From a virus (Duplodnaviria > Heunggongvirae > Uroviricota > Caudoviricetes), in the IMG/VR virus record IMGVR_UViG_2703718827_000007: a stretch of DNA of 22,232 nt; one strand, 5' to 3'. The notes under the pieces were generated by a model that was given only the letters and a program-made list of their open reading frames with translations, did no database searches and was not told the origin of the DNA. Positions 537 through 16,310 of the stretch are shown here, piece by piece. Position numbers and translations under genes: made by a program. Positions within the stretch are counted from its first letter, which is position 1; each line of letters opens with the position of its first letter.

Positions 537-553
537 ATGGTGCGATAATAGGA
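537..553. repeat. Distal att core copy (imperfect direct repeat of 16264-16281; lacks one C)
   Basis: 17 of 18 positions identical to the 3' acceptor/CCA end of the tRNA-Thr fragment at the other end of the element. Sits in the yagP-proximal intergenic region. Confidence 0.5.
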
Positions 554-615
554 ACAAAACAAACAATAAAAATACATTGATATATAAAGATATTTTCACG
601 TTACATCTTTGGAGA

Positions 616-635
616 TACCCCCAAAAGTACCCCCA
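616..635 (+). promoter_or_regulatory. Paired TACCCCCA motifs, putative integrase arm-type binding sites (distal arm)
   Basis: TACCCCCAAAAGTACCCCCA at 616-635. A near-identical pair TACCCCCATAAGTACCCCCA occurs at 16132-16151 next to int. Both pairs lie just inside the att repeats. Confidence 0.3.
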
Positions 636-895
636 AACAATTTTCTCTCACCACCATTTGCACATAAAGCAGCCATGTACAACTGGTAGTTGAACAGGCG
701 GGTAGACCGTTCGTTCAGTAAATACCTGATATTTCCGCCAACGAGAAATTGCGTTGGCTGGCAGAGTGCAAATTTGCACGATGACCTAACCCATTGATTC
801 TTTCGAAAACCTGCAATGCAGGAAGCCGGATAACACCATTTTTATAGCTCCGATCCCTTCAAAGTGAGGGGTAATTTGCCAAAACAGAGAGAGCA

Positions 896-1183
896 TTACT
901 GTCTCTGGCAATCTTTATCGCGATAACGCCTGAAGTACCCTCTCGCTTCCTCATCCATACCAAGAGCCGAATGAGTCCGCTTAACTGCCTGTCTTAAATC
1001 TCCGAATCTGTCTGTAGTTGCTGGTGGGCGTGCCGCCTTACGGATACATTCAGAGCGTCTGTTTGCTGCATGTTCACGTTCTTTATCGCCATCTGCCAGC
1101 ATCATGACTTCTGCCCATCGTGCGGCAGCTCTCCGGTATAGCCCTTTTGACTCCAGTTCTTCAGCTTTCCTGTCCCTTATCAT
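896..1183 (-). CDS. Small prophage regulatory protein, PerC-like (95 aa)
   Basis: ATG at 1183 preceded by GAGAGG; TATAAT-like -10 upstream. The N-terminus (MIRDRKAEELESKGLYRRAAARWAEVM) resembles the PerC-family proteins commonly annotated in P4-like prophages; this is recollection, not a search. Confidence 0.5.
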   Translation of the reverse strand: MIRDRKAEELESKGLYRRAAARWAEVMMLADGDKEREHAANRRSECIRKAARPPATTDRFGDLRQAVKRTHSALGMDEEARGYFRRYRDKDCQRQ

Positions 1184-1219
1184 TTCTGCCTCTCAGATTA
1201 TATAGATAAGCAAAAAGGT

Positions 1220-1340
1220 GTTGGTTCAGTTGGTTCAGTTGGTTCAATTTGTAAAGATCGTTGTTTTTATTGTGTTTTTTCTGAAATATTGAACCAACAT
1301 CAACTCATTTTGAACCAACACAGCCCAGCTCTGAACCAAC
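1220..1340. repeat. Iteron cluster 1: 3 tandem GTTGGTTCA (1220-1246) plus 3 inverted TGAACCAAC copies at 21-bp spacing (1290-1340)
   Basis: Directly visible 9-bp repeats in the divergent promoter region between the PerC-like gene and the RHH gene. Mirror image of cluster 2 at 7576-7686. Confidence 0.6.
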
Positions 1341-1393
1341 AACACAGCGATAGCTTTGTGATTGGTCCGTTATTTTCTGGCTGATATTTGAGC

Positions 1394-1425
1394 GTATAAC
1401 AGTGTTATACAGTGGTATACTGTAT
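1394..1425 (+). promoter_or_regulatory. Two adjacent inverted repeats (operator-like) upstream of the RHH gene
   Basis: ATAACAGTGTTAT (1394-1406) and ATACAGT-GGTAT-ACTGTAT (1407-1425), 18 bp upstream of the ATG at 1443. This is the typical position for an autoregulated RHH repressor operator. Confidence 0.35.
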
Positions 1426-1442
1426 GGATATTACTCACTGAT

Positions 1443-1898
1443 ATGGTCTTTGCAATGAGCAAATCTAATCTGGTCGCGTTCCGCATCCCATCTGAATTGC
1501 AGGATGAGTTTAATCGGTCTGTTCTCGCTTCTGGAGGGGATAAAACCTCCTGGCTTGTTGATGCGATTCGCATGAAGCTGGGACAGCCGGAAAAGTCTAT
1601 TGATTCACGAATGCTTGGGCTGGTGGAGCGCATGGAAAAAGCCGCTGCGTCGCTTATTGCCGGAAAGCCGAACATCCCACCAAAGCCATATAACGAAACG
1701 GCAGTTATAAAGATCATTGCCGATACCATCCGACAGGGATTTGATAATGGGCGCGTGATAGCTGAACGGATCAATGAAGCAGGCTATCAAACAAAAGCTG
1801 GTAAAGCGTGGGATAAAGATATTTACAGCGCGTGGAAGCGTCAGGGAAGCAATGCTGAAAAGTTAAAAGCGGTGATTGATTGTAAGGTCAGCGTATAA
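1443..1898 (+). CDS. Ribbon-helix-helix (Arc/CopG-like) domain protein, 151 aa
   Basis: N-terminal SNLVAFRIPSELQDEFNRSVL...WLVDAIRMKL fits the RHH beta-strand/helix pattern. The opposite-strand ORFs here translate to low-complexity sequence. Confidence 0.55.
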   Translation: MVFAMSKSNLVAFRIPSELQDEFNRSVLASGGDKTSWLVDAIRMKLGQPEKSIDSRMLGLVERMEKAAASLIAGKPNIPPKPYNETAVIKIIADTIRQGFDNGRVIAERINEAGYQTKAGKAWDKDIYSAWKRQGSNAEKLKAVIDCKVSV

Positions 1899-1977
1899 AC
1901 CTGAGTGCCCATTGGAAAACTGCTTGGGCCAATACCTTTATACACCAGCAGGTGGTGACGATGGGTGAGGATCAGGC

Positions 1978-2199
1978 ATGAAAGGCAGAACGCCACACAT
2001 TGAACATCAAGCCAACCACTTCTCGGATGTTCGCAATGAGATGATTGCCATTCGCGGTGATATGCACGGCTTGGAGCGTCGAATTATTGATAAGATTGAT
2101 GAAAATAGAGATAAGGCCAGTGAAAATCAAAAGTGGATCATCGGCCTGTTGATTTTATCAATGCTTATCCCGCTACTTATCGCATTGGTCACAAAATGA
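1978..2199 (+). CDS. Small tail-anchored membrane protein (coiled-coil N-terminus, C-terminal TM helix), hypothetical, 73 aa
   Basis: ATG at 1978 preceded by GGTGAGGA. C-terminal WIIGLLILSMLIPLLIALVTK is a single hydrophobic helix. Confidence 0.5.
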   Translation: MKGRTPHIEHQANHFSDVRNEMIAIRGDMHGLERRIIDKIDENRDKASENQKWIIGLLILSMLIPLLIALVTK

Positions 2200-2652
2200 A
2201 TATCCAATGTGTATGCTGTCGATGCTACGCGCGCGTACTTGTCGCAAAATATCAGACAAAAGCCAGATTCAGAACGTCGTGATAACCACCAGCACAACAG
2301 AGAGGTCATGTAACGCGATTTATCACACCAGATACATGTGATTGGTACACCCGCATAAAACATCGTCATAGCGCGTCCTGTGCGCATATACGCCGATAAT
2401 CAACACATCACCACCACTCTGTCTCGTGTAGAGAACAGTTTCATGGTATCCCCCGCCATCGTGTGCGTACTGGTCGGACGCAGTTGCAAAAAATTTTGCA
2501 ACTGATACCCCTCGCGCGCGTACTGGTCACGAAATTGGTGTTTTGCTGTGGCAGTGATATCAGAAAAATCTTGCTGTTTCACATAAAGCGGATATGCGCG
2601 TACTGTAACGGCCCCATCAACTGGGAGCGGATTTGAAATCCCGACCCAAGCT

Positions 2653-3072
2653 ATGTACCAAATGCCATGTCTTGGATATATGATGATTGCCATTCTAAAC
2701 AAAGCTAAAGGGAGGGTTGGTGTGAATGCTCAGGCTGTCATCATGGTTTTACTTGGTCTGATTGTCGCAAAACTATATCCAGACTGGTGGAAAGGGGCAT
2801 TAGCAACTGTCGCCATCTATTTGCTTTTATCCGTCGTTAAGCGATCGTTCGTTAAGACCGTAAATCAAGCAAAACGTTTCTCATTTAAGAATTTAATAAA
2901 CTATATTACTGGGCTTATTTTTTGCCTTTCAATTTTGATCGCTTCAGCTTTTTTGCCCGTATCAATAGCTAATTTTTTTGGCGCACCATATGAGGTAGGT
3001 TATCTATTCTCTGTTTTTTGTCTTGTTCTTTCCCTTCTTTACCTATGGATGAGAGCAAAGAACAAAAATTAG
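2653..3072 (+). CDS. Small polytopic inner-membrane protein, immunity-protein-like (maximal ORF; probable true start GTG 2722, about 117 aa)
   Basis: Three to four hydrophobic helices (AVIMVLLGLIVAKL, LATVAIYLLLSVV, ITGLIFCLSILIASAFL, LFSVFCLVLSLLYLW). GGAGGG lies 5 nt upstream of the in-frame GTG at 2722. The gene is AT-rich relative to its neighbours and converges on the 701-aa gene with only 18 bp between the stops. Confidence 0.6.
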   Translation: MYQMPCLGYMMIAILNKAKGRVGVNAQAVIMVLLGLIVAKLYPDWWKGALATVAIYLLLSVVKRSFVKTVNQAKRFSFKNLINYITGLIFCLSILIASAFLPVSIANFFGAPYEVGYLFSVFCLVLSLLYLWMRAKNKN

Positions 3073-3090
3073 CCATCCATGGCTAACCAG

Positions 3091-5196
3091 TTATTGAGAT
3101 TCTTTTTGTGATGCCTGTGCGACTCTGGTGAGCGATTGTGTGACCGTACTGATCGCTCTGTCATATGCTGTGCTACCTTTTGGCGTATTTGCCAGACGTA
3201 ACAAGGCATTTCGTATAACAGGGCTTTCGTATGCCTTCGCTGCTCCGCCTACGGCACCAGCAGCAGGAACAACAAACGCAGCCGTTTTTAGCATCCCCGC
3301 TAATACTGCTGCGTTTATGATGCCACCACCAACTAACAATCCATAAAGCTGCTGACCATTTAAGTTTTGAACGTTCGCTTTTGCCGCGTGTCTTGTATCG
3401 TTGAGGTATTTAATAACGCCGTCCAGTTCCTTTCCATGTACGCCTTTAAAGAAAGTTGCTGATTGCTTCCTGTTCCGGTGTAACGCATTAATAAACTTCT
3501 CAACACTGATATTTCCAGACGGATCAGTCGCCTTATCTACAGCATTCTGAACTATGGCTGCTCGTGCGTTTTGCCTACCATTGTCATCCAGAAGCCTGTA
3601 AAGCTGAGAACGTTCTGATGGGCTTTGGCTAAAAACGAGTTTTGTTACATCCTCAGGCGTGGCCTTGCCGCTGGCTATTGCCTTTTGAACGCGCGTTCTT
3701 CCCATCATGTCATTGAATTTAGACCATGAGCGATCAACCCTTGCCATATTAATGGCTTCGTCTGCTCCAAGATTTTTGGCTACGGCTTTTTTCATATCCG
3801 CCGTATATGCCTTGTAGATAATATCGCTGGCTTTCTGGAGCGTATCTTTATCAACAGTGTCAGATGACGCCATAAATCGCTTTCGAAGATCGGTTCTGTT
3901 TTCCCTCGCCAGACGCAGGTCATTTGGTCCGCTGGTGATATCGTCTTTAAATTGCTGCAAGACTTTTACCGCGGCTCTATCCTGAGATTTGCCCGGGCGG
4001 CTTAACACGGCAATCTGATTGTCGATAGCTTTTACCGTGTTTGAGAGATCGACAGGGGTATCCCCCATAGCGTCAATTATGCGGTTATATCGCTTTCCTG
4101 CTGCCTCAATGAATTTTTGTTGCCCTTTAGTCGCAGATTCATAAAGCTGTTTATCAGAAATGCCACCCAGACCATCGCTAAATGTTCTGACTAAATTTTC
4201 TCGTGCTTGTTGTTGATTCAGCCGATTCTTACCGGTTCCAAAAAAAGGAACTCTTTCGCCTAATGTCTGAGCCTGACTCTGCATAAAGGTTTTATCTTTC
4301 AGCATGTCACTGGTCATTAACGGCAGATTTCTTTCCGATGCAAAGTCGACAGCAGCCTTTGCTTCAGGCGACATATCACCACGAACAGCCCTCGAAACCG
4401 CACTCGCTGTATTTTCCAGCCCCTTACCAATACCACCAATGCCAGCAGAAATTACCGTTTGTAACGGATCAATATCTTCTCCACCAGCAAGGCTGGTGGC
4501 TCCCTGTAGTGCTAAATCTGTAGCTGCTGATTTTCCTATGGCACCAAGCACCGTTCCAGCCCTGCCCGCTGGTGTAAACGCCAACGCATTAGCAAGAAAC
4601 GAGGTCAGGTCTTGCGGTGATAAACCCGGCTTGTTCAGGGCATAATCACCTGATGGCAGAGAAACGATAGTATTCCCCTTCTCATCCTGCCTTAATGTCG
4701 CCCCCATTCCCTGAAGAATCTTTTCCTGAGACGCGTCAGAGCCGAAAAGTTGAGACCATCCAGCCTTTAGGGCATCCATGCTTAGTGAGTTCAATTCTGG
4801 GGCAGAGGCGACATTTTGCAGTCTCTCCATCTCTGGAGTCATTCGGCTTTCGCCTGTTATAGCATCGCGCATCGCAGCCCCAAGACTGGCTCCCTGTTCT
4901 GCTGAACGCTCAAGCCCCTCTCTTTGCTGAGTAGCTAACTTTGCATACCCTGACGCAAGAGAATTATCAGATGATGTATGTTGAATATTTTGAGTTGCTG
5001 ATTGGGATCGGTCTATTTCATTCGTTGATGGTAGTGGATAGGCAGCATAAAAAGCCTGCTTAGCCTGCTCTACACTTTCTCCGGCTTGCGGGGCCACGAC
5101 TTCATTGAAGTATTGCTCCTGAGCCTGCGCTTTTTGTTCTGGTGCTAACGCCTGATACTGTGGAGAGGCGATAACATCTTTCCATGCTTTAGCCAT
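3091..5196 (-). CDS. Hypothetical 701-aa protein: Ala/Gln/Gly-rich, predicted helical, with a C-terminal glycine-zipper hydrophobic hairpin
   Basis: Long ORF. ATG at 5196 is preceded by GGGGTGA and overlaps the upstream stop (TAATG). C-terminal LYGLLVGGGIINAAVLAGMLKTAAFVVPAAGAVGGAAKAY is a roughly 40-aa hydrophobic hairpin. No nucleotide-binding or catalytic motif recognised. Confidence 0.85.
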   Translation of the reverse strand: MAKAWKDVIASPQYQALAPEQKAQAQEQYFNEVVAPQAGESVEQAKQAFYAAYPLPSTNEIDRSQSATQNIQHTSSDNSLASGYAKLATQQREGLERSAEQGASLGAAMRDAITGESRMTPEMERLQNVASAPELNSLSMDALKAGWSQLFGSDASQEKILQGMGATLRQDEKGNTIVSLPSGDYALNKPGLSPQDLTSFLANALAFTPAGRAGTVLGAIGKSAATDLALQGATSLAGGEDIDPLQTVISAGIGGIGKGLENTASAVSRAVRGDMSPEAKAAVDFASERNLPLMTSDMLKDKTFMQSQAQTLGERVPFFGTGKNRLNQQQARENLVRTFSDGLGGISDKQLYESATKGQQKFIEAAGKRYNRIIDAMGDTPVDLSNTVKAIDNQIAVLSRPGKSQDRAAVKVLQQFKDDITSGPNDLRLARENRTDLRKRFMASSDTVDKDTLQKASDIIYKAYTADMKKAVAKNLGADEAINMARVDRSWSKFNDMMGRTRVQKAIASGKATPEDVTKLVFSQSPSERSQLYRLLDDNGRQNARAAIVQNAVDKATDPSGNISVEKFINALHRNRKQSATFFKGVHGKELDGVIKYLNDTRHAAKANVQNLNGQQLYGLLVGGGIINAAVLAGMLKTAAFVVPAAGAVGGAAKAYESPVIRNALLRLANTPKGSTAYDRAISTVTQSLTRVAQASQKESQ

Positions 5197-6662
5197 TAAT
5201 CACCCCATAGTGAAGAAAAGTTACTGCTGGCTGCTGGCTGTGATACCTGCTCAGATTGCGGCAATGTCTGCGACGAAGAAGCAGTTCCTCTGTCAACTGC
5301 TGAAATAACCCGCAAAGCATCATAAGTTCGACCAGAAGCAGCTTTCAGCGAATTGAACTGGTTTTCCATCTTCCGGCGCTTGGTATCAATGGTTTTTGTG
5401 GAATCACCAGGCTGAGGGAAATACATTTGATAATATTTGGACATTTCAGCTGGTAGGATAGATGCCCCTGTTTCCTGACGGAGTATTGCCATTATTGCGT
5501 CATTAGCATTAACAACGTATTGCTGCTCTGCTGGGCTGAGCGTTAAGTTAGCCAGCGTCCCATTACCCAAAGCATTATTAATGATCGCCACTCGCTGTGG
5601 GCTAAGCTGGTCTTTCAGTGTATCTATTGAATCAAGAGCATCCCTAACCCTGTATGCAAATCCAGCAGCTTTTTTAGCCCCTTCTGGCGACTTTTCCATG
5701 ATCTTTTGGGCTGTTGGCAAAGCTATTGGACGAAACCCATCTCCAGATATTGGCTGGTTTAGTTTTCCCTGCTCTTCACTTCCGTCTGTGTAGTATTTTG
5801 TGACAGTGCCATCATCGTTTTCTCTAACACTCATTAATTTTTTGGCGTTTGTATTAATTCCAGCCGCTGCCGCAAATGCCGCCGCCCCCTCTGGATCCGC
5901 CTTTAACATTTGCGCGTACTGATTGTAATTCTGCATTGCTGCTGTTGGTGCATATGCTGACGTTAACGCATTTGCTCGGCTAATATCCTGCCCTCTCGCC
6001 TGAAGTGCTTCGCCAGCCTGATTGCTGCGGATTGTCTCTGCCAACTTGCCACGCTCAATATCCCGACCTTCCATTTGATCTTTGATATCGAAATACTTCT
6101 CATGACCGAGAGAAAACAGCGCCAGATTACCTGCGAAATGCTGGAAGCCCTGCGGGTCATTAACCTGCATTTCAGCAATAGTTTCTGGAGGGATACCTAA
6201 ACGACGCATCTCCTGCTCATTATCCATCATGAACCTGCCAAATGCGCCCTGACCAAGCGATGAGGCTACCTGTGCTTTGAGCGCCAGATTGCCATAATCA
6301 TCCCTTTGAGCATCATCGACATAACTCATCCCTTTACGGACTTCCTCAAACTCTTCTGGGAATGCTGTAATAAGATTACGCATCTGCTCCCTGTCACCGG
6401 ACGCATAAGCATCTGCATAACCTTTCTGGAATGCCGCTTTACGCTCCTGCTGTTGCTGCTGCTTATAAATATCAGCAACGCCAGCCAGACCACGAAGACC
6501 TGTCAGAGCAACGTTATTTGCACCTGAGCGAGCCAGTTCATTGTTTTCGCGGATCAGACCAAGCGTTGCGTTAATGTCGCTTGCCTTTGGCGCATTCTCA
6601 TTTTGCGTACCGATGCCAGCCAGAAAACCACCAGAATTAATACCCTGTTGCCACGTAGCCAT
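5196..6662 (-). CDS. Hypothetical 488-aa protein: Gln/Ala-rich, predicted helical or coiled-coil (ORF track extends to a GTG at 6674)
   Basis: ATG at 6662 (MATWQQ...) lies 4 nt after the stop of the 57-aa ORF. Stop overlaps the start of the 701-aa gene, indicating translational coupling. No enzymatic motif recognised. Confidence 0.85.
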   Translation of the reverse strand: MATWQQGINSGGFLAGIGTQNENAPKASDINATLGLIRENNELARSGANNVALTGLRGLAGVADIYKQQQQQERKAAFQKGYADAYASGDREQMRNLITAFPEEFEEVRKGMSYVDDAQRDDYGNLALKAQVASSLGQGAFGRFMMDNEQEMRRLGIPPETIAEMQVNDPQGFQHFAGNLALFSLGHEKYFDIKDQMEGRDIERGKLAETIRSNQAGEALQARGQDISRANALTSAYAPTAAMQNYNQYAQMLKADPEGAAAFAAAAGINTNAKKLMSVRENDDGTVTKYYTDGSEEQGKLNQPISGDGFRPIALPTAQKIMEKSPEGAKKAAGFAYRVRDALDSIDTLKDQLSPQRVAIINNALGNGTLANLTLSPAEQQYVVNANDAIMAILRQETGASILPAEMSKYYQMYFPQPGDSTKTIDTKRRKMENQFNSLKAASGRTYDALRVISAVDRGTASSSQTLPQSEQVSQPAASSNFSSLWGD

Positions 6663-6666
6663 TGAT

Positions 6667-6840
6667 TTACCCACGTCCAGTTAAAGTGTAAGCCAGCGCC
6701 TTATCCATTAATCCCCGAGCAATTTCGTGGATCGTTGGCGCAACTCCTACCTCTGATTTTTTACGCTGCTCCTCCTGAATTTTCTTTATCGCTTCCATTT
6801 GCTTCTCACTTATCAATACTGGCTTTACTGAAATAGCCAT
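6667..6840 (-). CDS. Small 57-aa protein, first gene of the SOS-box operon (possible small DNA-binding or chaperone-like protein)
   Basis: ATG at 6840 preceded by AGGGGG. Translation MAISVKPVLISEKQMEAIKKIQEEQRKKSEVGVAPTIHEIARGLMDKALAYTLTGRG. Below the 60-aa cutoff of the ORF track, so found by manual translation. Confidence 0.45.
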   Translation of the reverse strand: MAISVKPVLISEKQMEAIKKIQEEQRKKSEVGVAPTIHEIARGLMDKALAYTLTGRG

Positions 6841-6854
6841 AACGCCCCCTTAGA

Positions 6855-6872
6855 ACTGTATAAAACAACAGT
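6855..6872. promoter_or_regulatory. LexA (SOS) box ACTGT-N8-ACAGT overlapping the operon promoter
   Basis: ACTGTATAAAACAACAGT matches the CTGT-N8-ACAG consensus with an AT-rich spacer. It lies between a TATAAT -10 (complement of 6875-6880) and the ATG at 6840. Confidence 0.55.
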
Positions 6873-6935
6873 CATTATAGTTTCATAAAACGCAACATTC
6901 ATAATTGTGATTGCAAAATATGAAACAAATAGCAC

Positions 6936-6968
6936 AAAAAAATGCCACCGTTCAGTAGCTGGTGGCAT
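6936..6968 (-). terminator. Rho-independent terminator (minus strand) ending the primase/153-aa transcript
   Basis: On the minus strand an 8-bp GC-rich stem (ATGCCACC...GGTGGCAT, 11-nt loop) is followed by a T7 run. Located 50-85 nt downstream of the stop of the 7021-7479 gene. Confidence 0.55.
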
Positions 6969-7020
6969 CGTTCTGTATGTCAGGTTTTGACAGTTTTTTT
7001 ATGGACTCTAAAAACTATAT

Positions 7021-7479
7021 TTATGGAGTCGCATTACTCTTCATGGCGTGAGCTTTCCTGTTCTCTCTTTGTTCCTGGTTCCATGGATAAGTGTAATTGC
7101 CACCAGCAAAGACCATATTGATTTTGTGAGGAACCATTAAAGCGATATCAGCACTCATGTCACTGAATGAAACACAGTGCAGGCGTTCAAGCCATTTGTA
7201 TGCTGCTGCCGCTTCTCCCCACAAATTAATCCCTGCAAGTTCAACAATATCTCTGATGGAGCAGATATCAACCATCCCGTTAACGCCTGTAAAACGGCGT
7301 TTAAAGTCGCCAAGATACTTTCTGAAAAGAGTTGCTTTCATTGGTTCAGAAAGGTCTATGTATGGGAACACAACCACATCAAGCAGCATCTCCCTTCTGT
7401 TGTTCATCGGTATTACAGATGGCAAATCGGATACTTTGCCAAATACATGATGAAAAGCCTTTGCGATTATCTTCATCAT
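7021..7479 (-). CDS. Hypothetical protein, about 152 aa
   Basis: ORF track start at 7482 is TTG; ATG codons at 7479 and 7476 follow GGGAGA. No family recognised. Confidence 0.6.
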   Translation of the reverse strand: MMKIIAKAFHHVFGKVSDLPSVIPMNNRREMLLDVVVFPYIDLSEPMKATLFRKYLGDFKRRFTGVNGMVDICSIRDIVELAGINLWGEAAAAYKWLERLHCVSFSDMSADIALMVPHKINMVFAGGNYTYPWNQEQRENRKAHAMKSNATP

Positions 7480-7575
7480 CAATCTCCCACTGAAACCAGT
7501 GATGTGGTGTTCAGATTTCGTAAAACACTCTCTAATGCCAGCCAGATGTTGTGCTCATCAATTCAGTCACGTTGT

Positions 7576-7686
7576 GTTGGTTCAAAATGCCGTGTTGTTG
7601 GTTCAGTGTTGGTTCAATAAAAAGAATAAAATCCTTATAAAACAATACTCTTTACAAATTGAACCAACTGAACCAACTGAACCAAC
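7576..7686. repeat. Iteron cluster 2: 3 GTTGGTTCA copies (7576, 7597, 7608) plus 3 tandem TGAACCAAC (7660-7686)
   Basis: Same 9-mer as cluster 1 in mirrored arrangement, immediately 3' of the primase-helicase stop at 7712. Analogous to the ori/crr repeats bound by P4 alpha protein, but with a different repeat unit. Confidence 0.6.
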
Positions 7687-7711
7687 ACCTTTTCTACGCA
7701 CATGAAGAAGC

Positions 7712-10468
7712 TCATTCTTCAGATGAGTTGTAATCTCCTGGCTGGTAATTGAGTACATAAACGTTTATTTGTCGTCCCTGAATACGTGGTGATTTTCTTT
7801 GGTATCCACGACCGCTGTTTGGTGGGGTTAGCATCCCGGCTTTTTTCAACACTTCAGCAAACTGTTTTGCGTTGAAACCACATGCGATCTCCTTTTCAAA
7901 TGTGGCCGGGAATGTGTAGAAAATCATTGGGCTTTCGTCATGTTCTCCACGCTGACGGTATCCGGCTAAATCTTTGATGGGCAAATCTGCCGGGCTGTAT
8001 GGAAATGGTGCAAAACGGCTAAGCCCATAGGCATTAAGAAATGCCTCCGTTTGTTCAATAATCTGCTGATGCTCTTTGTTACCTGTGCCGAACTCGCGCA
8101 ACCATGCGTTATAGCTGTGCTGTATCGCATCACGGCATGTCTGAGCATCCCAGCCTGTTACAACCTCGCCTAACAACAATGCGGCCTCCAGAATGGCAAA
8201 TCGCGCGGCTACACGGTGAACCTGCTCACCATAATCGGATGGGATCAGGCTTCTCCATCTGCTTTCGCAGTCACGAACAGTTTTAATAGCCTGTTGCTGG
8301 TGGTCTGCCAGCCATTTAATCCACTCACGCCCGGACGCGCCGTGGTGATGCTGGTAAGCGTCTTTCAGTGCGTCTGCGTGCTGTTTTCCGTTCTGGTAAT
8401 CGTGAAAGCGTACTGCTTTACTCAACGGAATATTCAGCAGTCGCACCAGTTGCCCGGCTTTGGTTTTTCGCCCGGAAGTAGCGATAAATGTTTCTAAATC
8501 CATTTCTCCGGTGCTGATTGCCACTGTACGCCAGCGTTTTAGATCCCGGTTTCCACCATCTTTAGCGCCTTGCAGTTTCCCTACACCGTTAAATAACGCA
8601 TAGGCAGACTGTGAAACACTGACAGGATCAGCGCCCTGACCAACTTCATCAAGCGGCATTAGTCCGTCATTGTGGGCGGCGGCTTCATTTGCCAGCCCCA
8701 GCGCGGTTCCGTACCACGTCAGCCGCAGTAAATCAGGGTTGCCGTATAAGCTGCTCGCCACGTTTGCCGTGGTGGTCTTACCTGCGCTCGACTGCTCATA
8801 GAAATGAATGCCGAACCCGTCAGCGCCCACCAGCCCAATCAATGGCGCTGCCAGTGCTGCGCCGATCCCGGTCATCATTGAATAGTTACCAAAGGCCAGA
8901 CGCGCCACGTTATCACGCCAGCTTTTCGCGCTCCCTGAGACGGTATATCCGGCTGCGGCTGAGCTTCTCCCGCTGAACAGCACAGGATTTTCAGGTGTTC
9001 CGATGATTTCCCCATCAGGCATGATGTACGCTCCGCATTGCCAGCCAGTGGCATGAGCAACACGCCACAATTCACGAGAGCCACTGCGTTGTAGCCAGTC
9101 TGCCAGTATTGCTCTGAGGCTGCTTTTGGTCGTGACATTTACCCCACCAGCTTTAAGTGTGCGCCATCCTTCACGTTCACCAATATCAGCCAGTGGAATG
9201 GCAGCGGTTGTCGGCGTTTCAGAACCAAACGACAGCCAGCGAAGAATGAGATACTGGTCTTTATCGTCTCTGCCAGTACCGATAACGCTTAACGGAGAAC
9301 ATAACCAGCTTTCGTTATTGATGATTTCTCCACTCTGGCTGTCAGCTCTCGGAGATACCCAATAAATACCATCCTCGCGGCTTTCTATTCTTGGTTTCAG
9401 TGGGTCGGTATCCATAACCTTAAAATCGCTTCCCTCAATGGTCTGTGGCTCCTGTTTCACGCCATTACCCTGTGGTTGGTACATTGACTTATTGAACGCT
9501 TCTGTGGCGCATTTAATGCCGTGTTTTTGGTGGTAATCATTCCAGTCTGCTTTGTGATCTGTCGGGGGTAATGCCACCCATCCAGAAACAGATAAAGCTG
9601 CCTTTTCTGCTGCTATTCTCCCCGTGTTTTGTCTTCCTTCGCTGTGGTCGTTATCCGCAGCAATGATGATTTGTGCTGAAGGAAATTTATCCCGCAGTAC
9701 CTGGGCGACATATAACAGGTTCCCGGCATCAATCGCCGCCACTGTCAGCGCCTCTGGACGAATTAAATGGGCAGATAATGCCGTTGCCAGCCCTTCTGCG
9801 ATTAAGATGCTCTGTGTTGTTTCTGGTGCGTTTATGGCGTGATATGCCCCCCGCTTTGCTGAACCTGTCAGGAGTCTTTTTTCACCATGTGAGGTAATAG
9901 TCTGTGCTGCTGTTACTGCGCCGGATTTATCCACCAGCGCCAGCAACAGAGATCCATCGGGCAACACGGGGAATGTAAAATCACCTACCCCTTTCGCAAC
10001 CAGATAATCAGATTTGCCGTTTACAGCCTTTCTGCGCATGTCATCAAACTGACGGGAAAACGTATCCCGTCTTTGCTGTTCGTCCTTCTCTGCCCTTTTC
10101 AGGCGCTCCTGTTCGCGTCGCTGGCGCTCGGTTTCCAGTTGTTCCCGTTTCTGGCTGGTGGCTTCTGGTGTTTCCGTTGTCCGGTAATCAATACCCAGAA
10201 CATCAGCGGCAAGAAGCGCCGCCTCTGTTGTGTCGCAGTTATTTACGCGTTTAATTAAATCCAGCCCATCACCAGCGCCGCACTGATTACAGATGAAGCT
10301 ACCGCGCCCGTTGTCATCGAACCGGAATCGATCTTTGCCCCCACATGCAGGGCAGGGAGCATGACGGCGCGGAGAGTCAGGGACATTTATGTTCAGGCAG
10401 CCCAGCACATGAGGCCAGTTGTTTTCAGACGCACTGATAACCTGACGGATAAGATCAATGTTTCGCAT
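7712..10468 (-). CDS. P4 alpha-like DNA primase-helicase (zinc ribbon + TOPRIM primase + P-loop helicase + C-terminal DNA-binding region), 918 aa
   Basis: N-terminal zinc ribbon CPACGG...FICNQCG; TOPRIM-like motifs (EGLATALS, IIIAADNDHSEG); Walker A-like SSAGKTT. ATG at 10468 preceded by a GGGGG stretch. Confidence 0.9.
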   Translation of the reverse strand: MRNIDLIRQVISASENNWPHVLGCLNINVPDSPRRHAPCPACGGKDRFRFDDNGRGSFICNQCGAGDGLDLIKRVNNCDTTEAALLAADVLGIDYRTTETPEATSQKREQLETERQRREQERLKRAEKDEQQRRDTFSRQFDDMRRKAVNGKSDYLVAKGVGDFTFPVLPDGSLLLALVDKSGAVTAAQTITSHGEKRLLTGSAKRGAYHAINAPETTQSILIAEGLATALSAHLIRPEALTVAAIDAGNLLYVAQVLRDKFPSAQIIIAADNDHSEGRQNTGRIAAEKAALSVSGWVALPPTDHKADWNDYHQKHGIKCATEAFNKSMYQPQGNGVKQEPQTIEGSDFKVMDTDPLKPRIESREDGIYWVSPRADSQSGEIINNESWLCSPLSVIGTGRDDKDQYLILRWLSFGSETPTTAAIPLADIGEREGWRTLKAGGVNVTTKSSLRAILADWLQRSGSRELWRVAHATGWQCGAYIMPDGEIIGTPENPVLFSGRSSAAAGYTVSGSAKSWRDNVARLAFGNYSMMTGIGAALAAPLIGLVGADGFGIHFYEQSSAGKTTTANVASSLYGNPDLLRLTWYGTALGLANEAAAHNDGLMPLDEVGQGADPVSVSQSAYALFNGVGKLQGAKDGGNRDLKRWRTVAISTGEMDLETFIATSGRKTKAGQLVRLLNIPLSKAVRFHDYQNGKQHADALKDAYQHHHGASGREWIKWLADHQQQAIKTVRDCESRWRSLIPSDYGEQVHRVAARFAILEAALLLGEVVTGWDAQTCRDAIQHSYNAWLREFGTGNKEHQQIIEQTEAFLNAYGLSRFAPFPYSPADLPIKDLAGYRQRGEHDESPMIFYTFPATFEKEIACGFNAKQFAEVLKKAGMLTPPNSGRGYQRKSPRIQGRQINVYVLNYQPGDYNSSEE

Positions 10469-10480
10469 TCTGGCCCCCGT

Positions 10481-11083
10481 TTAGTGCGTCACTGGTGCTT
10501 CTGGGATGCCGTTTTCGTTTAGTTCGGCAATAAAGCTGTTGTGAAGATCGGCAAGCACTTCTCGCCCAAACGAAGTGAGTGTTCCCTGTTCGACATCGAA
10601 CATGTTGCTGTAAAAAATGATGGCATTCTTTGTTCCGACATCAACACCATATTTCTCGATCATTGCGCCCTCAATGTTGTTTGCCATAGCGAGGCGCTCT
10701 GCTACTGGATACAGCGGCATGGCGACGATGCCATTGGAATAAACAGAAACCACGGAATGATTGCCACTGTCATCAATAATGCTGACGGTGCCGTTTTCCT
10801 TTCTCATTTCATTGATGAATGCTGTTGCTATCAGCCAGCGCCACATAATCACGTGATGCTGTGATGTGTAATCGAAATATCCCTGGTTGCCGCCACTGGC
10901 AATAGCGAGATGTATAAACATGCCTTCATCTGGTTTATCGTCATAATCCCCGGCATCCAGACGATTTACGGCATCAATATATGAGACGGTCTCAACGCGT
11001 TCTGTCATGCCATCGTTGCTGCGGTGCATGATGTTTACGCCGTCAGGCGTTGCTTCTGCATGGAAGGTTAAGAAATTATTCAT
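10481..11083 (-). CDS. Hypothetical protein, 200 aa
   Basis: ATG at 11083 overlaps the stop of the upstream ORF (ATGAATAA). Located immediately upstream of the primase-helicase in the same operon. Confidence 0.6.
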   Translation of the reverse strand: MNNFLTFHAEATPDGVNIMHRSNDGMTERVETVSYIDAVNRLDAGDYDDKPDEGMFIHLAIASGGNQGYFDYTSQHHVIMWRWLIATAFINEMRKENGTVSIIDDSGNHSVVSVYSNGIVAMPLYPVAERLAMANNIEGAMIEKYGVDVGTKNAIIFYSNMFDVEQGTLTSFGREVLADLHNSFIAELNENGIPEAPVTH

Positions 11084-11297
11084 GTTTCGCCTCGCCTGAA
11101 TGATTCTGTAACTCATATTTGCCCAACAATTCGTCTGCTTCCTGAATAGCTTCTGGTACGCCATTGAGCAGTGACATAACCGCGCCAATCATTAACTTGT
11201 CTCTGTTGCTGGGGCTGGCCCCTTCAAGCCAGAACCCTAAAACAGTCTGAACCTGTTCGATGCGACATTGCGCTTCAATGAGCTGGATGTTGGTCAT
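11076..11297 (-). CDS. Hypothetical small protein, 73 aa
   Basis: ATG at 11297 overlaps the upstream stop (ATGA), indicating translational coupling. Confidence 0.55.
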   Translation of the reverse strand: MTNIQLIEAQCRIEQVQTVLGFWLEGASPSNRDKLMIGAVMSLLNGVPEAIQEADELLGKYELQNHSGEAKHE

Positions 11298-11557
11298 TTC
11301 GCACTCTCCACATCGATTAAACTGATATCTATCAGGGAGGTAACTTTTTGTAGCCAGCTATTGATTACTGTCGCCTGTTCCCCTCCCACCGAGGGAATAA
11401 TCTCATTCATCACATGAACCAGACCTGTGCGCGCTCTGGTAAGCCGTTCAGTCGCGCAATCTGCGGGAGTGAATGTGTCTGGATATGGCTCTTCGCGCCC
11501 CAGCAATGATTCAATTTCCAGCTCACACGGATGACGATAAATTAAGTTGATATTCAT
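11294..11557 (-). CDS. Hypothetical small protein, 87 aa
   Basis: ATG at 11557 overlaps the upstream stop (ATGA). Confidence 0.55.
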   Translation of the reverse strand: MNINLIYRHPCELEIESLLGREEPYPDTFTPADCATERLTRARTGLVHVMNEIIPSVGGEQATVINSWLQKVTSLIDISLIDVESAK

Positions 11558-11748
11558 TTTTCACCCCCAAGAATTACCAGCTCGGCACGGGCATCGTTAA
11601 CCAAAGATGAGCACGCTTTAATCGCATCCACGACATCAGCAGCGTCCATTTCTTCAGCCGAAAGACTGACAGCAACCAGGACAGCCGCTGCTTGCTCGAT
11701 TAATTGAAGTGCGGACGTAAGGCGAGGGGTATTAATTGAGTTATTCAT
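11554..11748 (-). CDS. Hypothetical small protein, 64 aa (ORF track lists the longer 11554-11805 version)
   Basis: ATG at 11748 ([10 protein letters not shown]...) overlaps the stop of the upstream frame (ATGAATAA) and follows a G-rich stretch. Confidence 0.5.
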   Translation of the reverse strand: MNNSINTPRLTSALQLIEQAAAVLVAVSLSAEEMDAADVVDAIKACSSLVNDARAELVILGGEK

Positions 11749-12808
11749 TGGTTGCCCCCGTTTTGCATGGCATTTGTCCACCTTCCAGCAGGAAATGAAC
11801 GTCACGAACGGCGAGATCCAATATCGCGAGTAACGCCTTCAGTTTTTCGTCTCGTGAGGGAGAGTTGCTCACCAGAATGTCATTAATCACTTCTGTCAGT
11901 GTGATGATCTGGCTTGTGCGTTCGAGGGGATCCATATGCACATCGTAGGTTTTAATCATGTGCCACCTCCATGCGGATACGACCAGCAAAAAAGCAGACG
12001 TGATCGCGCACCAGAGAACGGCGAGCATCGCGTTCAGACTCGGCAGCAATATGATGAATTTTGGCGGTAATTGTCGGGCAATCGCGGCGAACTGCGGCGA
12101 TAATCCAGATAAATTGCGGTTTTTGGGTAGGGGTAGTAGCCAGCATGTGGCAGCCTCCATTCGATAGCATGTAACGCTACCACCGGAAACGCCAATTTCG
12201 CTGGTGGTAGCCCAGACAGGGTTGGCGTAACCGGCTCGAATGGATACCGGCGCTTCCGAAGAAGCCCCTGCCTGAGCCACCATTGATTGACAAAGGCGCT
12301 GGATTATACACCAACGCCCAAAAAATGGGTGAGTCAGACCTACGACATAAAAAAAGACGCTCGGCGCGTCATATGTCGCCATTCGATTTACCAGGACGCC
12401 AATCCCGGCACCCGTTTTATGAGGTGCCTTATAACCATAAACCGTGTTGCCGCATAACGGCAAGCTCTTTTTTATGGACTCCGAAAACTCACTATTGGAA
12501 GAACCAGAAGCACAGTACATCGCGCTCATTTCGTTAACGTCACGCGCGTGGACGAAGGTTTTTGTGGAGTCACTACGCGAGCAGAGAAAGCCATCTACGA
12601 CCAGAAATTCTCTGGCGCAGCCGCTGACCTTCTCAACGCTAACACCATCGACCGTAATTTCTGACATAGTTAAGGCATCCGCTCCTACCACCAGCAAATG
12701 ATAAACTTTGCTTGTATCTGCTGTATTAATGCCTGACTTTGCTGTCATATTGCTGGATTTTGGCGACATACCAGCCAGTGAAAATGTCTTCTTCTGGGCG
12801 GTTAGCAT
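11741..12808 (-). CDS. Hypothetical protein; 355-codon open frame with ambiguous internal organisation
   Basis: ATG at 12808 overlaps the stop of the 60-aa gene (ATGCTAA). The N-terminal two-thirds looks protein-like; the middle (about 11960-12170) is Leu/Pro-rich and looks out of frame. A strong internal start (GGAGGTGGCAC-ATG at 11958) would give a 72-aa product, and an alternative-frame ORF at 11952-12170 has its own GGAGG-ATG. Possibly a frameshifted gene or two to three genes. Confidence 0.4.
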
Positions 12809-12984
12809 TTGTTAACCTCCGCGAACTCCTTCATGAAACGTGCCAGCGGTTGTACGCATGGCGATTGATACCCGTCGCGATAAAACGTCACTCGGTTGTG
12901 AGACACGCTTTCGACAGTAACGAGTGCTCCGTGGGCATCTTTGTAGCGTTTTTGAGGTTGTGGTGTTCCTGTCGGCTTAAACAT
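12802..12984 (-). CDS. Hypothetical small protein, 60 aa
   Basis: ATG at 12984 preceded by GGAGG, 3 nt after the stop of the 277-aa gene. The ORF track extends it to 13071, overlapping the upstream gene. Confidence 0.45.
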   Translation of the reverse strand: MFKPTGTPQPQKRYKDAHGALVTVESVSHNRVTFYRDGYQSPCVQPLARFMKEFAEVNKC

Positions 12985-13810
12985 GGACCGCCTCCAGACG
13001 CTTAGCGAGCCAGCGTTGCGACAGGCGGGTGAGTTCTCCTTTGCGCTGCTCATATTCCATGCCCATATCAATTAACGTGATATTGGTGCTTTCGAGATAT
13101 GAGAGGTGCTCAAGCTGTTCTGCGTTCATATGGTCGCGAGGTTCGCCAGAATAGCCATTTATCCGCGCCCACTGCTTAGCAGTTAGCCCACCAAGAACGA
13201 TACGAGAAATCATATTGCTCTCGTTTGTGTAGTGGTGTTGCTGCGTCGTTTTCCCCATCTCGGCACGGGCCATATTCAGCGCATCGCACATTGGCTTAAA
13301 GTTGTTTGCGGCACTGATACGGGCTTTTAGCTGGCGACGATAGCGGGCGGCGATTTCAGGCACGCTACGCTGTAATTCTTCCTCGCACTGGATGAAATAA
13401 CGGCGGATAGCGCGCCCCTGATCATTGCGTTCGATCATTGCCAGTTCTTTCGCCATTCCGACACTTAACAGATAGTCTTTGCCGGGTCTTCCAGACTGCT
13501 TAATCTTGCTGTAAGCCGCGCCATTCGGGATTTTCCCCAAATTTGGGGAAATAGTTTTATGGACTGAGTAATCGTGCCCAATGGTGAAGTCATATTCAGA
13601 GATGCGATCAGTGATCCATGTAGAGAAGTCTTTTCCCACGCCCAACGCTTTGTGTAACGCTTTTGCGCTAACAATATTGGTTTCACGCCCACCGATATGA
13701 CCAGGAATAACCGGGACAATTGCGGCAAATTCATTACCGTTAATTGTGCCCAGAGAGGCGTTCAGATGAGGGGCAGCCTCAGAAATTAATCTGCTTTTTT
13801 CGATGTTCAT
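12977..13810 (-). CDS. Prophage protein, 277 aa, possibly antirepressor/KilA-C-like
   Basis: ATG at 13810 preceded by GGAG. Segments (NIVSAKALHKALGVGKDFSTWITDRI, GRPGKDYLLSVGMAKELAM, RRYFIQCEEEL) are reminiscent of phage antirepressor-type domains; recollection only. Confidence 0.6.
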   Translation of the reverse strand: MNIEKSRLISEAAPHLNASLGTINGNEFAAIVPVIPGHIGGRETNIVSAKALHKALGVGKDFSTWITDRISEYDFTIGHDYSVHKTISPNLGKIPNGAAYSKIKQSGRPGKDYLLSVGMAKELAMIERNDQGRAIRRYFIQCEEELQRSVPEIAARYRRQLKARISAANNFKPMCDALNMARAEMGKTTQQHHYTNESNMISRIVLGGLTAKQWARINGYSGEPRDHMNAEQLEHLSYLESTNITLIDMGMEYEQRKGELTRLSQRWLAKRLEAVHV

Positions 13811-13822
13811 TTTCAGTCTCCG

Positions 13823-14254
13823 TTAGGCGGCGTTAAACGCGTCCGGGTAGAGTTTCAGAATGTCGGCAATTTCCTGCTGAGAAAGTCCGTTGTGATCATT
13901 TATGTTCGCAAGATGGTTAATATGAGTGATCACTTTCAGAACATCACCACGGCAGGAGAAACGGTAGCGAAGGTGTGTTCCGATACCATCAGGATTCTTT
14001 TCGTCGATACGCTCCAGAGTGATTCCGAGCTGGCGTTCTAACTCTGTTGCATAGTTACGACCAGAAGACAGACGGCAGTAGCGAAGAATGTCATTTTCTG
14101 TCCATCCCTCTATACCAGTACGCAGCATATAGACTCGGGCACGATGCTTTTTCGGCGTGCGCTTTGGTGCTTGAAGGGATTTTGTCAGGGGCGTAACATC
14201 AGATACGCGAATATCTGAATTAGCCGCCTGTAATGGGCGGTTTTTCTTTTCCAT
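13823..14254 (-). CDS. Hypothetical prophage protein, 143 aa
   Basis: ATG at 14254 shares its A with the alpA stop (TGATG). No family recognised. Confidence 0.6.
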   Translation of the reverse strand: MEKKNRPLQAANSDIRVSDVTPLTKSLQAPKRTPKKHRARVYMLRTGIEGWTENDILRYCRLSSGRNYATELERQLGITLERIDEKNPDGIGTHLRYRFSCRGDVLKVITHINHLANINDHNGLSQQEIADILKLYPDAFNAA

Positions 14255-14457
14255 CAGGCCACCTCGTCTCTAGATTCTAATATACACTTCTCAATCCATT
14301 CATCTATTTCAGACTCAACAAAAGCAATTGCCCGACTTCCAATTTTTACCTGTTTAGGGAACCTCCCCTGACTAATAAGACGATAAATCCATGCTTTGCT
14401 ATAACCAGTTCGCCTTTGAACTTCAGAGAGACGAATTAATGAATTGTAATTAGCCAT
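14254..14457 (-). CDS. alpA: AlpA-family phage transcriptional regulator (excisionase-like winged HTH), 67 aa
   Basis: MANYNSLIRLSEVQRRTGYSKAWIYRLISQGRFPKQVKIGSRAIAFVESEIDEWIE is a classic AlpA/Xis-type HTH. First gene of the operon downstream of int. Confidence 0.8.
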   Translation of the reverse strand: MANYNSLIRLSEVQRRTGYSKAWIYRLISQGRFPKQVKIGSRAIAFVESEIDEWIEKCILESRDEVA

Positions 14458-14543
14458 TTATTAATATCCTGTACTAATGACGCAATAACCCCCTCCTGCA
14501 ACGAATGGCGAGAGTTTTATTTGCGTCAAATGTCGAATACGCC

Positions 14544-14578
14544 AAAGACCACAATATGAAAAACATATTGCGGTCTTT
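14544..14578. promoter_or_regulatory. 15-bp inverted repeat (operator or RNA hairpin) in the int-alpA intergenic region
   Basis: AAAGACCACAATATG-aaaaa-CATATTGCGGTCTTT, 14/15 complementary, about 90 nt upstream of the alpA start. Not followed by a T-run on the minus strand, so more likely an operator than a terminator. Confidence 0.3.
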
Positions 14579-14884
14579 TATAAAAGATAGTCAGATTGTT
14601 TTGGTTTGTTTGCTCCACAAGGGTAGAGCTACCCTGCATTTCGGCAGGATCACGCTATTAGGCGTGACATCCAGTAGTTTTAAAGAACAATTGCGCTTTG
14701 TCAGCGCCAAAGCCTGTTAAAGAACATTCCGCTTTTCAGCAGCGTAGAAGGCTCAATACACCTTCGTTTATAAAAGAGCGATTGCCCTTCTCCAGGGCTA
14801 ACTGTTAAATAGCAATCCTCTGTGAGTTTTTATCAATCTACTCCCCTATACTTTAGTAAACCTCTGTATACTTGTCCAGTTGTT

Positions 14885-16099: not shown

Positions 16100-16101
16100 T
16101 T

Positions 16102-16247
16102 GGGGGTACCTCCACTAAACCGAACAGCAAATACCCCCATAAGTACCCCCATCTGACCGTAGATTTTGAGGGACTTTAGTAGACGTCAAAAGACGAACGG
16201 GGCTTTAATACGTGGATTATAAGGGGTTTTGAAAGACTTTAGTAGAC
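16102..16247. promoter_or_regulatory. Integrase arm-type repeat region: GGGGGTA (16102-16108), TACCCCCA x2 (16132-16151), GACTTTAGTAGAC x2 (16172-16184, 16235-16247)
   Basis: Direct and inverted short repeats between the int start and the att core. The TACCCCCA pair is duplicated at the distal end (616-635). Confidence 0.35.
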
Positions 16248-16264
16248 TTGGGGAGATGTTTGAA

Positions 16265-16310
16265 TGGTGCCGATAATAGGAGTCGAACCTACGACCTTCG
16301 CATTACGAAT
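16265..16310 (-). pseudogene. 3'-terminal 46 nt of a tRNA-Thr (thrW-like, anticodon CGT), prophage attachment-site remnant
   Basis: The minus strand reads ATTCGTAATGCGAAGGTCGTAGGTTCGACTCCTATTATCGGCACCA: anticodon loop TTCGTAA, T-stem GTAGG/CCTAT, T-loop TTCGACT, acceptor strand plus CCA. No matching 5' acceptor (GCCGATA) or D-arm upstream, so the tRNA is truncated at position 31. Identity to thrW is from memory. Confidence 0.7.

Follow-up and report, generated by a model that had tools for sequence, protein, structure and literature searches.

The 22,232-nucleotide stretch of viral DNA analyzed here (IMG/VR record IMGVR_UViG_2703718827_000007; "the window" below means this whole stretch) carries an EcCIMP1-like phage-inducible chromosomal island (PICI) at positions 544-16281. 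Within the island, the gene for a 918-residue primase-helicase, Pri-Rep, is followed by a cluster of short repeats (iterons), and a second cluster, in mirror orientation, lies on the far side of a 6,235-bp cargo segment, next to a perC-family gene. Our analyses indicate that the two clusters are probably units A (cluster 2, proximal to pri-rep) and B (cluster 1, distal) of a bipartite PICI replication origin, the 9-mer iteron of which would be read by the winged helix of Pri-Rep. The features of the two units and of pri-rep are as follows.

1196-1219, minus strand: conserved flank of unit B (ACCTTTTTGCTTATCTATATAA on the minus strand)
1220-1246, plus strand: unit B (distal, cluster 1) tandem iterons, three copies of GTTGGTTCA
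1247-1289: unit B AT-rich spacer, 43 bp, 21% G+C, putative unwinding region
1290-1340, minus strand: unit B inverted iterons, three at 21-bp spacing
1376-1384, plus strand: TCTGGCTGA motif beyond the unit B spaced iterons, mirror of 7537-7547
7537-7547, minus strand: TCTGGCTGGCA motif beyond the unit A spaced iterons
7576-7616, plus strand: unit A (proximal, cluster 2) spaced iterons, three, 21 and 11 bp apart
7617-7659: unit A AT-rich spacer, 43 bp, 16% G+C
7660-7686, minus strand: unit A tandem iterons, three, ending 25 bp from the pri-rep stop
7712-10468, minus strand: Pri-Rep, 918 amino acids (aa), with a Zn-ribbon/Toprim primase, a DUF927 helicase and a C-terminal winged-helix domain
7781-7813, minus strand: codons of Pri-Rep residues 886-896 (GRGYQRKSPRI), a class-dependent patch

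Anatomy of the two iteron units

The exact 9-mer GTTGGTTCA is present in 12 copies in the window, all of them within 1220-1340 and 7576-7686. In cluster 1 the copies start at 1220, 1229 and 1238 on the plus strand and at 1290, 1311 and 1332 on the minus strand; in cluster 2 they start at 7576, 7597 and 7608 on the plus strand and at 7660, 7669 and 7678 on the minus strand. When one mismatch was allowed, 21 matches were found against 5.2 ± 2.2 expected, a number reached in none of 100 dinucleotide shuffles. Each cluster is composed of three head-to-tail iterons, a 43-bp AT-rich spacer and three spaced iterons on the opposite strand, and the clusters themselves lie in opposite orientations. The spacers contain 21% (cluster 1) and 16% (cluster 2) G+C compared to 47% for the island as a whole. 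Self-alignment revealed inverted arms of 55 nt (1213-1267 and 7639-7693) with 95% complementarity, and cluster 1 and the reverse complement of cluster 2 share 78% column identity across ~220 nt, with a 10-bp gap arising from the 21- and 11-bp distances between the spaced iterons of cluster 2.

An earlier sequence-only reading of this DNA had described two mirror-image clusters at these intervals, with similar flanks, and this description was borne out by the 12 exact copies, the self-alignment and the inverted arms. The two flanking sequences that it quoted can be read at 1332-1348 (TGAACCAACAACACAGC) and, on the minus strand, at 7589-7605 (TGAACCAACAACACGGC), and cluster 2 indeed abuts the 3′ end of the primase-helicase gene, its last tandem iteron lying 25 bp from the stop codon. 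The arrangement of three tandem and three spaced copies likewise stands for both clusters; the 21-bp spacing, however, holds for cluster 1 and not for cluster 2. A literature search for the GTTGGTTCA 9-mer returned only unrelated papers.

Several shorter elements accompany the units. In each unit, a CTGGCTG(G) motif is located ~30-35 bp past the spaced iterons; the two copies mirror each other, and in some relatives the motif overlaps a Chi sequence (GCTGGTGG). On the other side of unit B, next to the tandem iterons, most relatives in all seven of the iteron classes described below share a flank that resembles A(C/T)nTTTTGCTTATATATA (TTTTGCTTATATATA) and is thus independent of Rep specificity. 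In the window this flank (1196-1219) is too near the perC start codon for an obvious promoter.

Pri-Rep, the iteron classes and their nearest known relatives

Pri-Rep contains the Pfam domains Zn_Ribbon_Prim, Toprim_3 and DUF927. Residues 7-361 align with the primase domain of the P4 alpha protein (33% identity, E 2e-41), but the remainder does not, and P4 alpha harbors D5_N, DUF5906 and Pox_D5 domains in place of DUF927. Residues 402-813 match the Rep protein of the Staphylococcus aureus pathogenicity islands (SaPIs; 8tch, E 1.4e-11) and, more weakly, SCCmec Cch (5dgk). The helicase and C-terminal domain resemble both proteins by sequence and by predicted fold, and the NCBIfam family SCCmet_Cch1 matched Pri-Rep with an E value of 1.5e-9. 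As the primase is P4-like and the helicase and C terminus are SaPI-Rep-like, Pri-Rep appears to be a fusion of two sources, a P4-type primase joined to a SaPI-Rep-type self-loading helicase with a predicted origin-binding domain. The term "alpha-like", which the sequence-only reading had used for this protein, is therefore apt for its primase half but not for its helicase and C terminus. In the locus from Yersinia pekkanenii (L033, 10001-13866) the primase match spans 3.9 kb rather than 2.75 kb, and a related protein (P0085) is named HNH endonuclease; this primase gene may contain an HNH or intein-like insertion. The same locus has three origin clusters, which may reflect tandem elements.

We compared 77 loci encoding homologs of the primase-helicase, one genome per species. 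About 58 of the 77, from many enterobacterial genera, contain a repeated 9-mer in both orientations that starts 22-45 bp after the rep stop codon. These loci fall into at least seven iteron classes:

GTTGGTTCA: most loci
GTTGTCTCA: 5 loci
GTCGGTTCA: 5 loci
AACGGGTTA: 3 loci
ACTTATCCC: 2-3 loci
ATAACCCAC: 1 locus
GGTCGGGTA: 1 locus

Across residues 360-809, Reps of the GTTGTCTCA and AACGGGTTA classes are as close to GTTGGTTCA Reps as the latter are to one another (identity ratio 0.95-1.13). Divergence between classes is confined to the last 50-110 residues (~810-918), with the ratio dropping to 0.50-0.87 at residues 870-899. Within this region, an 11-residue patch at 886-896 sorts the iteron classes without exception: 39 of 39 Reps of the GTTGGTTCA class have RG[YF]QRKS-PR[IV], all five of the GTTGTCTCA class have RGYQGRV--RE, and the remaining classes carry other motifs. 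In the modeled structure of Pri-Rep, the patch follows the last helix and precedes the last strand, corresponding to the wing of the winged helix. This class-linked change of iteron and patch is the pattern expected if the domain recognizes the iterons, and the covariation argues that the C-terminal domain of Pri-Rep would be the reader of the 9-mer. The connection that the sequence-only reading had made between the clusters and the neighboring primase-helicase is thus supported.

The PICI origin has been described as an AT-rich region with an iteron set on either side, located immediately 3′ of rep (PMC6092414), and SaPI Rep binds its iterons, which are opposed across the AT region, by means of a C-terminal winged helix (PMC9371898). 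By its sequence, cluster 2 has the appearance of a textbook PICI/SaPI-type origin: it lies 3′ of rep, its iterons are opposed around an AT-rich region, its Rep is homologous to that of the SaPIs, and iteron and Rep C terminus covary. Because the helicase and C terminus match SaPI Rep, the PICI/SaPI Rep-ori replicons (SaPI1, SaPIbov1 and SaPI5 PriRep; EcCICFT073 pri-rep-ori) are closer to this system than P4 is, and are its nearest known family. The likeness comprises an origin directly 3′ of rep, short iterons opposed around an AT-rich region, iterons that covary with the Rep C terminus and, as a predicted feature of the window, a self-loading Rep helicase with a C-terminal winged-helix reader; in SaPI5, as here, the primase is fused to Rep. 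In contrast to the single unit of the PICIs and SaPIs, however, the window has two complete, inverted units, 6.2 kb apart with cargo between them. In addition, its iterons are 9-mers compared to the 5-6-mers of SaPIs (PMC9371898), and its primase is of the P4-alpha type (Zn-ribbon/Toprim), unlike that of the SaPIs. SCCmec Cch and Cch2 share the helicase domain family of Pri-Rep (5dgk; SCCmet_Cch1) but belong to a different type of element.

In the ori/crr-alpha system of P4, both cis regions are required for replication. As read from the annotated record X51522, crr (4291-4590) lies directly 3′ of alpha and ori (9310-9413) 4.7 kb away, and both contain TGTTCACC iterons on the two sides of AT-rich stretches. 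The window and P4 thus have in common two cis regions with the same iteron, kilobases apart on a small circular satellite and one of them 3′ of the primase-helicase gene, as well as iterons on either side of an AT-rich stretch and a homologous N-terminal primase domain. They differ in the iteron itself (GTTGGTTCA versus TGTTCACC in X51522, a difference from the P4 octamer that the sequence-only reading had also noted). In P4, crr is a pair of 120-bp direct repeats; the sites in the window are single units that are mutually inverted. Moreover, alpha has D5_N/DUF5906/Pox_D5 where Pri-Rep has DUF927 and a SaPI-Rep-like C-terminal domain, and the P4 sites flank the alpha operon whereas the units here flank cargo and are contiguous in relatives. 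P4 ori/crr is therefore a fair analogy of layout, but membership in that system fails on the helicase/C-terminus family, the iteron and the repeat structure. The parallel drawn by the sequence-only reading survives for layout and primase homology and not for an independent ori and crr, as the two units are inverted halves that lie side by side in many relatives; we abandoned an independent, crr-like reading of the distal unit for this reason.

Contiguous and split layouts of units A and B

In several relatives, as in the window, a second cluster of the same 9-mer is found 1.1-9 kb downstream of the first (L012, L018, L020, L025, L034, L037, L054, L059, L060 and L061; the genera are Lonsdalea, Chimaeribacter, Rosenbergiella, Pantoea, Serratia, Leclercia, Cedecea and Erwinia). 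The E. coli copies L079, L082 and L083 also show this split layout, and there are ~14 split elements when the window and EcCIMP1 are included. In every aligned locus, the distal cluster is inverted relative to the proximal one. In at least 24 other loci, which include all seven iteron classes, units A and B instead lie side by side within 250-420 bp, in the order tandem iterons, spacer, spaced iterons, CTGGCTGG, spaced iterons, spacer and tandem iterons on the opposite strand, followed by a TTTTGCTTATATATA-like flank that is the counterpart of 1196-1219 in the window. The CTGGCTGG element at this A/B junction also adjoins an unrelated, DUF5906-type origin in the E. coli locus L080.

Unit B of the contiguous loci is always inverted and always of the iteron class of its own locus. 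Since contiguity with matching iterons is seen in all seven classes, A and B appear from these comparisons to be one bipartite, inverted origin region, the halves of which are separated by cargo in the ~14 split elements. Each unit also keeps a spacing of its own across genera (0/11/32 in unit A and 0/21/42 in unit B), and it is the bases between the iterons, not the iterons, that have drifted. This unit-specific spacing and iteron conservation suggest that the duplication is old and that both halves are under selection. The spacers of split B units are AT-rich in 11 of 11 tabulated cases (12-26% G+C).

We infer from these data how the region would work. The C-terminal winged-helix domain of Pri-Rep would recognize the 9-mer, with specificity residing in the wing (residues ~886-896). 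Pri-Rep would assemble on the iterons, melt the AT-rich spacer, load itself as a helicase and prime synthesis. The ancestral layout, which is also the commonest, would have had A and B back to back, immediately downstream of the rep gene. In the window, a 6.2-kb insert, comprising P22-type ejection genes and a small block with a ribbon-helix-helix (RHH)-like regulator, would have separated the two and left B beside perC. Given its full origin-like anatomy and iterons that track the Rep class, unit B is most likely still bound by Rep, and may act as a second loading site, that is, a second origin, as a P4-crr-like partner of A, or as a regulator.

Several findings weigh against a shared origin function of this kind. 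In contiguous loci (n = 24), only 14 of the B spacers are AT-rich; the other 10 are G+C-rich (48-69%), which is not origin-like, and these units may serve another role. Approximately 16 relatives have unit A alone within the sequence compared (up to 10 kb), so that unit B may be dispensable. A near-clonal variant of the island, present in 68 E. coli genomes, has a DUF5906 replication protein with iterons of its own and yet an intact GTTGGTTCA unit B; in its representative, L080 (NZ_CP024232.1; 16380-16500 and 23423-23598), the same island frame contains a P4-alpha-type DUF5906 primase and TGGTATAGGTGGTACAGGT iterons. Unit B can thus persist, at least briefly, without its cognate Rep. Finally, the alignment behind the Pri-Rep structure model is shallow, with 30 sequences of at least 48% identity. 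On the other side, the class-matched iterons in seven classes, the conservation across genera and the origin-like anatomy of B when split favor a real role of unit B in Rep binding.

These same observations bear on a different role for unit B, that of a Rep-operated control region that regulates perC or the RHH-like open reading frame (ORF), or that keeps copy number down by handcuffing unit A, as iteron plasmids do. The 259 bp that separate the divergent genes perC and ORF 1443-1898 are occupied by unit B, and in all classes the TTTTGCTTATATATA-like flank, which does not depend on class, stands between the tandem iterons and the next gene; the G+C-rich B spacers in 10 of 24 contiguous relatives are unlike an unwinding element, and some relatives apparently have no B within 10 kb. 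However, scans of both cluster regions (around unit B, positions 1100-1500 for promoters) for sigma-70 promoters and for terminators found nothing, and a TATAAT-like box 13 nt from the perC ATG overlaps the ribosome-binding site and is unlikely to be the perC promoter. All split B units, moreover, are still built in full like an origin, and their spacers (12-26% G+C) are homologous to the unit A spacer. A control region is compatible with Rep binding, and so competes only for the role assigned to unit B; as the explanation of that unit we consider it unlikely.

Much less probable still is that cluster 1 is a functionless relic, either of a second, decayed island or of the recombination that brought the cargo. 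Replication and cargo modules have clearly been swapped by recombination, L080 has a foreign rep beside an intact GTTGGTTCA unit B, and B is missing within 10 kb in some relatives. A relic is nevertheless difficult to reconcile with a unit B that is intact, inverted and matched to the Rep class in at least 10 genera and seven iteron classes, with the retention of its iterons against drifting intervening bases, or with the single integrase and single pair of att cores in the island.

The sequence-only reading had also proposed that recombination between the clusters would invert the cargo. We built an inverted-junction query (perC, hybrid cluster and ORF-153 side) and searched 5,426 complete E. 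coli genomes. At ≥80% coverage, the inverted junction was present in 0 of 551 matching genomes and the native junction in 255. The polarity of the slot genes is identical in all split relatives examined and in a circular 12.15-kb record, the annotation of the island includes no invertase gene, its sole recombinase being the tyrosine integrase at the far end, and Pfam and NCBIfam scans of the cargo ORFs detected no recombinase domain. Thus, although arms of 55 nt at 95% (~130 nt overall) are long enough for occasional RecA-dependent exchange, it is scarcely credible that the clusters are recombination substrates for flipping the 6.2-kb cargo, whether to serve as a switch or to drive 2-micron-like amplification, since the large virion genes always point away from A and the RHH-like ORF from B, and since in many relatives the units are adjacent with nothing between them to flip; nothing supports rare inversion within a culture either.

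The host island and its cargo

The island that houses the proposed bipartite origin region has an integrase, flanking att repeats, an AlpA-type regulator and pri-rep, without a structural or lysis module, which identifies it as a PICI. The 10-bp att core is present in exactly two copies in the window, against 0.01 expected. The annotation used here was taken from RefSeq, from a 99.5% identical copy of the island.

544-553, minus strand: att core direct repeat TCCTATTATC, one island end; the same core is reported for EcCIMP1 (PMC11773190)
896-1183, minus strand: perC-family gene, reading away from the unit B tandem iterons (Pfam PerC, E 2.6e-33; RefSeq)
14885-16099, minus strand: tyrosine integrase of the island (RefSeq annotation)
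16272-16281, minus strand: att core direct repeat, other island end

From the integrase end, the genes on the minus strand are the integrase, a helix-turn-helix (HTH; AlpA-like) regulator, an antirepressor, an ash-family protein, the TOPRIM+DUF927 protein, two "ejection/injection" proteins, small ORFs and perC. A 1,484-aa ORF (16701-21155, minus strand) is located just outside the island att site. The island is matched in hundreds of complete E. coli genomes; a megablast search of a phage collection with pri-rep plus unit A gave no matches.

EcCIMP1 of E. coli MP1 is excised, circularized and transduced with the P22-like helper Kapi1 (PMC11773190; Pick, Stadel and Raivio 2025), and helper-driven mobilization has been reported in the literature for EcCIMP1 only (PMC11773190). 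That paper describes no origin, and the word "iteron" does not occur in it. EcCIMP1 resembles the window in its att core TCCTATTATC, integrase, AlpA-like HTH regulator, antirepressor, ash and perC genes, TOPRIM-DUF927 primase, P22-type ejection genes and two inverted GTTGGTTCA units. In MP1 these units are 8.4 kb apart, one by perC and the other 26 bp past the primase stop codon. MP1 differs from the window in its 8.4-kb cargo, the lack of the RHH-like ORF and a 21+21 spacing in unit A. The Vat autotransporter gene of MP1 lies in an island adjoining EcCIMP1.

Two circular records carry the module. In the first, an E. coli "plasmid" record (L083; NZ_CP148430.1, 12,152 bp), the units are 1.8 kb apart and the ejection genes are missing; in the second, a Klebsiella "plasmid" record (L084; CP031370.2, 19,229 bp), the two units are contiguous. 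These records show that such islands can be assembled as separate circles, which is circumstantial evidence for autonomous replication.

The cargo between the units consists of two convergent gene blocks.

1341-7575: cargo, 6,235 bp
1443-1898, plus strand: 151-aa ORF reading away from unit B, with an RHH-like N terminus (NLVAFRIPSEL...; RHH assigned from the sequence)
3091-5196, minus strand: P22 gp16-like DNA-transfer/ejection protein, 701 aa (phrog_770, E 2.5e-163; RefSeq "injection protein")
5196-6674, minus strand: P22 gp20-like ejection protein, 492 aa (Pfam Inj_translocase, E 1.6e-83; phrog_917)

The block that reads away from unit A encodes a 153-aa ORF followed by the gp20-like and gp16-like proteins, and the block that reads away from unit B contains the RHH-like ORF and small ORFs. 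No informative match to Pfam, NCBIfam or PHROGs was obtained for ORFs 1443-1898, 2400-2702, 2653-3072 and 7021-7482. In L059, L020, L018, L025 and L060, a homolog of the RHH-like ORF is found next to the distal unit and has the same orientation. A strict linkage of the two was rejected: in L003, L023 and L039 no distal unit adjoins the ORF, and in MP1 the unit is present but the ORF is not. Direct repeats (ACAGTGTTATAC / ACAGTGGTATAC) are present at 1398-1425, upstream of ORF 1443-1898, and its homologs in other genera have two to three copies of TGTCTTAC upstream; the ORF probably encodes an autoregulated small repressor. No SOS operon, which the sequence-only reading had placed in the cargo, was found there: the cargo contains the gp20- and gp16-like genes, and LexA-box matches with up to one mismatch are at chance level (9 versus 6.6 expected). 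The sole perfect LexA-box-like site, CTGTATAAAACAACAG at 6856-6871, upstream of the ejection-protein genes, is within chance expectation.

That the clusters bracket a cargo segment is supported by the relatives, in which the slot ranges from 1.1 to 9 kb and holds different genes. These include tape-measure proteins, ~590-aa SLT-domain proteins, a Fic protein or a P4 Beta-like protein; delivery-type slot genes (tape-measure or SLT-domain) are found in L054 (16228-18912), L018 (14632-18042), L059 (16258-18012) and L020 (14445-16247). This suggests that the satellites bring ejection or tail-length proteins matched to the type of helper. We tentatively raise the possibility that A and B form a looped pair bridged by Pri-Rep, as for P4 ori/crr, and that the gap between them is a cargo slot for helper-matched delivery genes acquired through exchange at the units, driven by replication or by sequence homology. 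If so, the origin would double as the cassette-exchange site of the satellite.

A Rep-iteron origin with a winged-helix reader is already known from the SaPIs, and the advance here is one of architecture and not of kind. PICI origins have so far been described as a single iteron/AT-rich/iteron unit after rep, and the lineage described here, which is found in hundreds of E. coli genomes and to which the experimentally mobilized EcCIMP1 belongs, has two inverted units. For a satellite family that is abundant but poorly annotated, the analysis defines an origin precisely enough to be tested and points to residues 886-896 as the predicted specificity patch. The contiguous, split and mismatched elements constitute a natural series for asking what a second origin unit does, and the two units are a pair of landmarks for locating a cargo slot that appears to carry DNA-delivery proteins specific to the type of helper.

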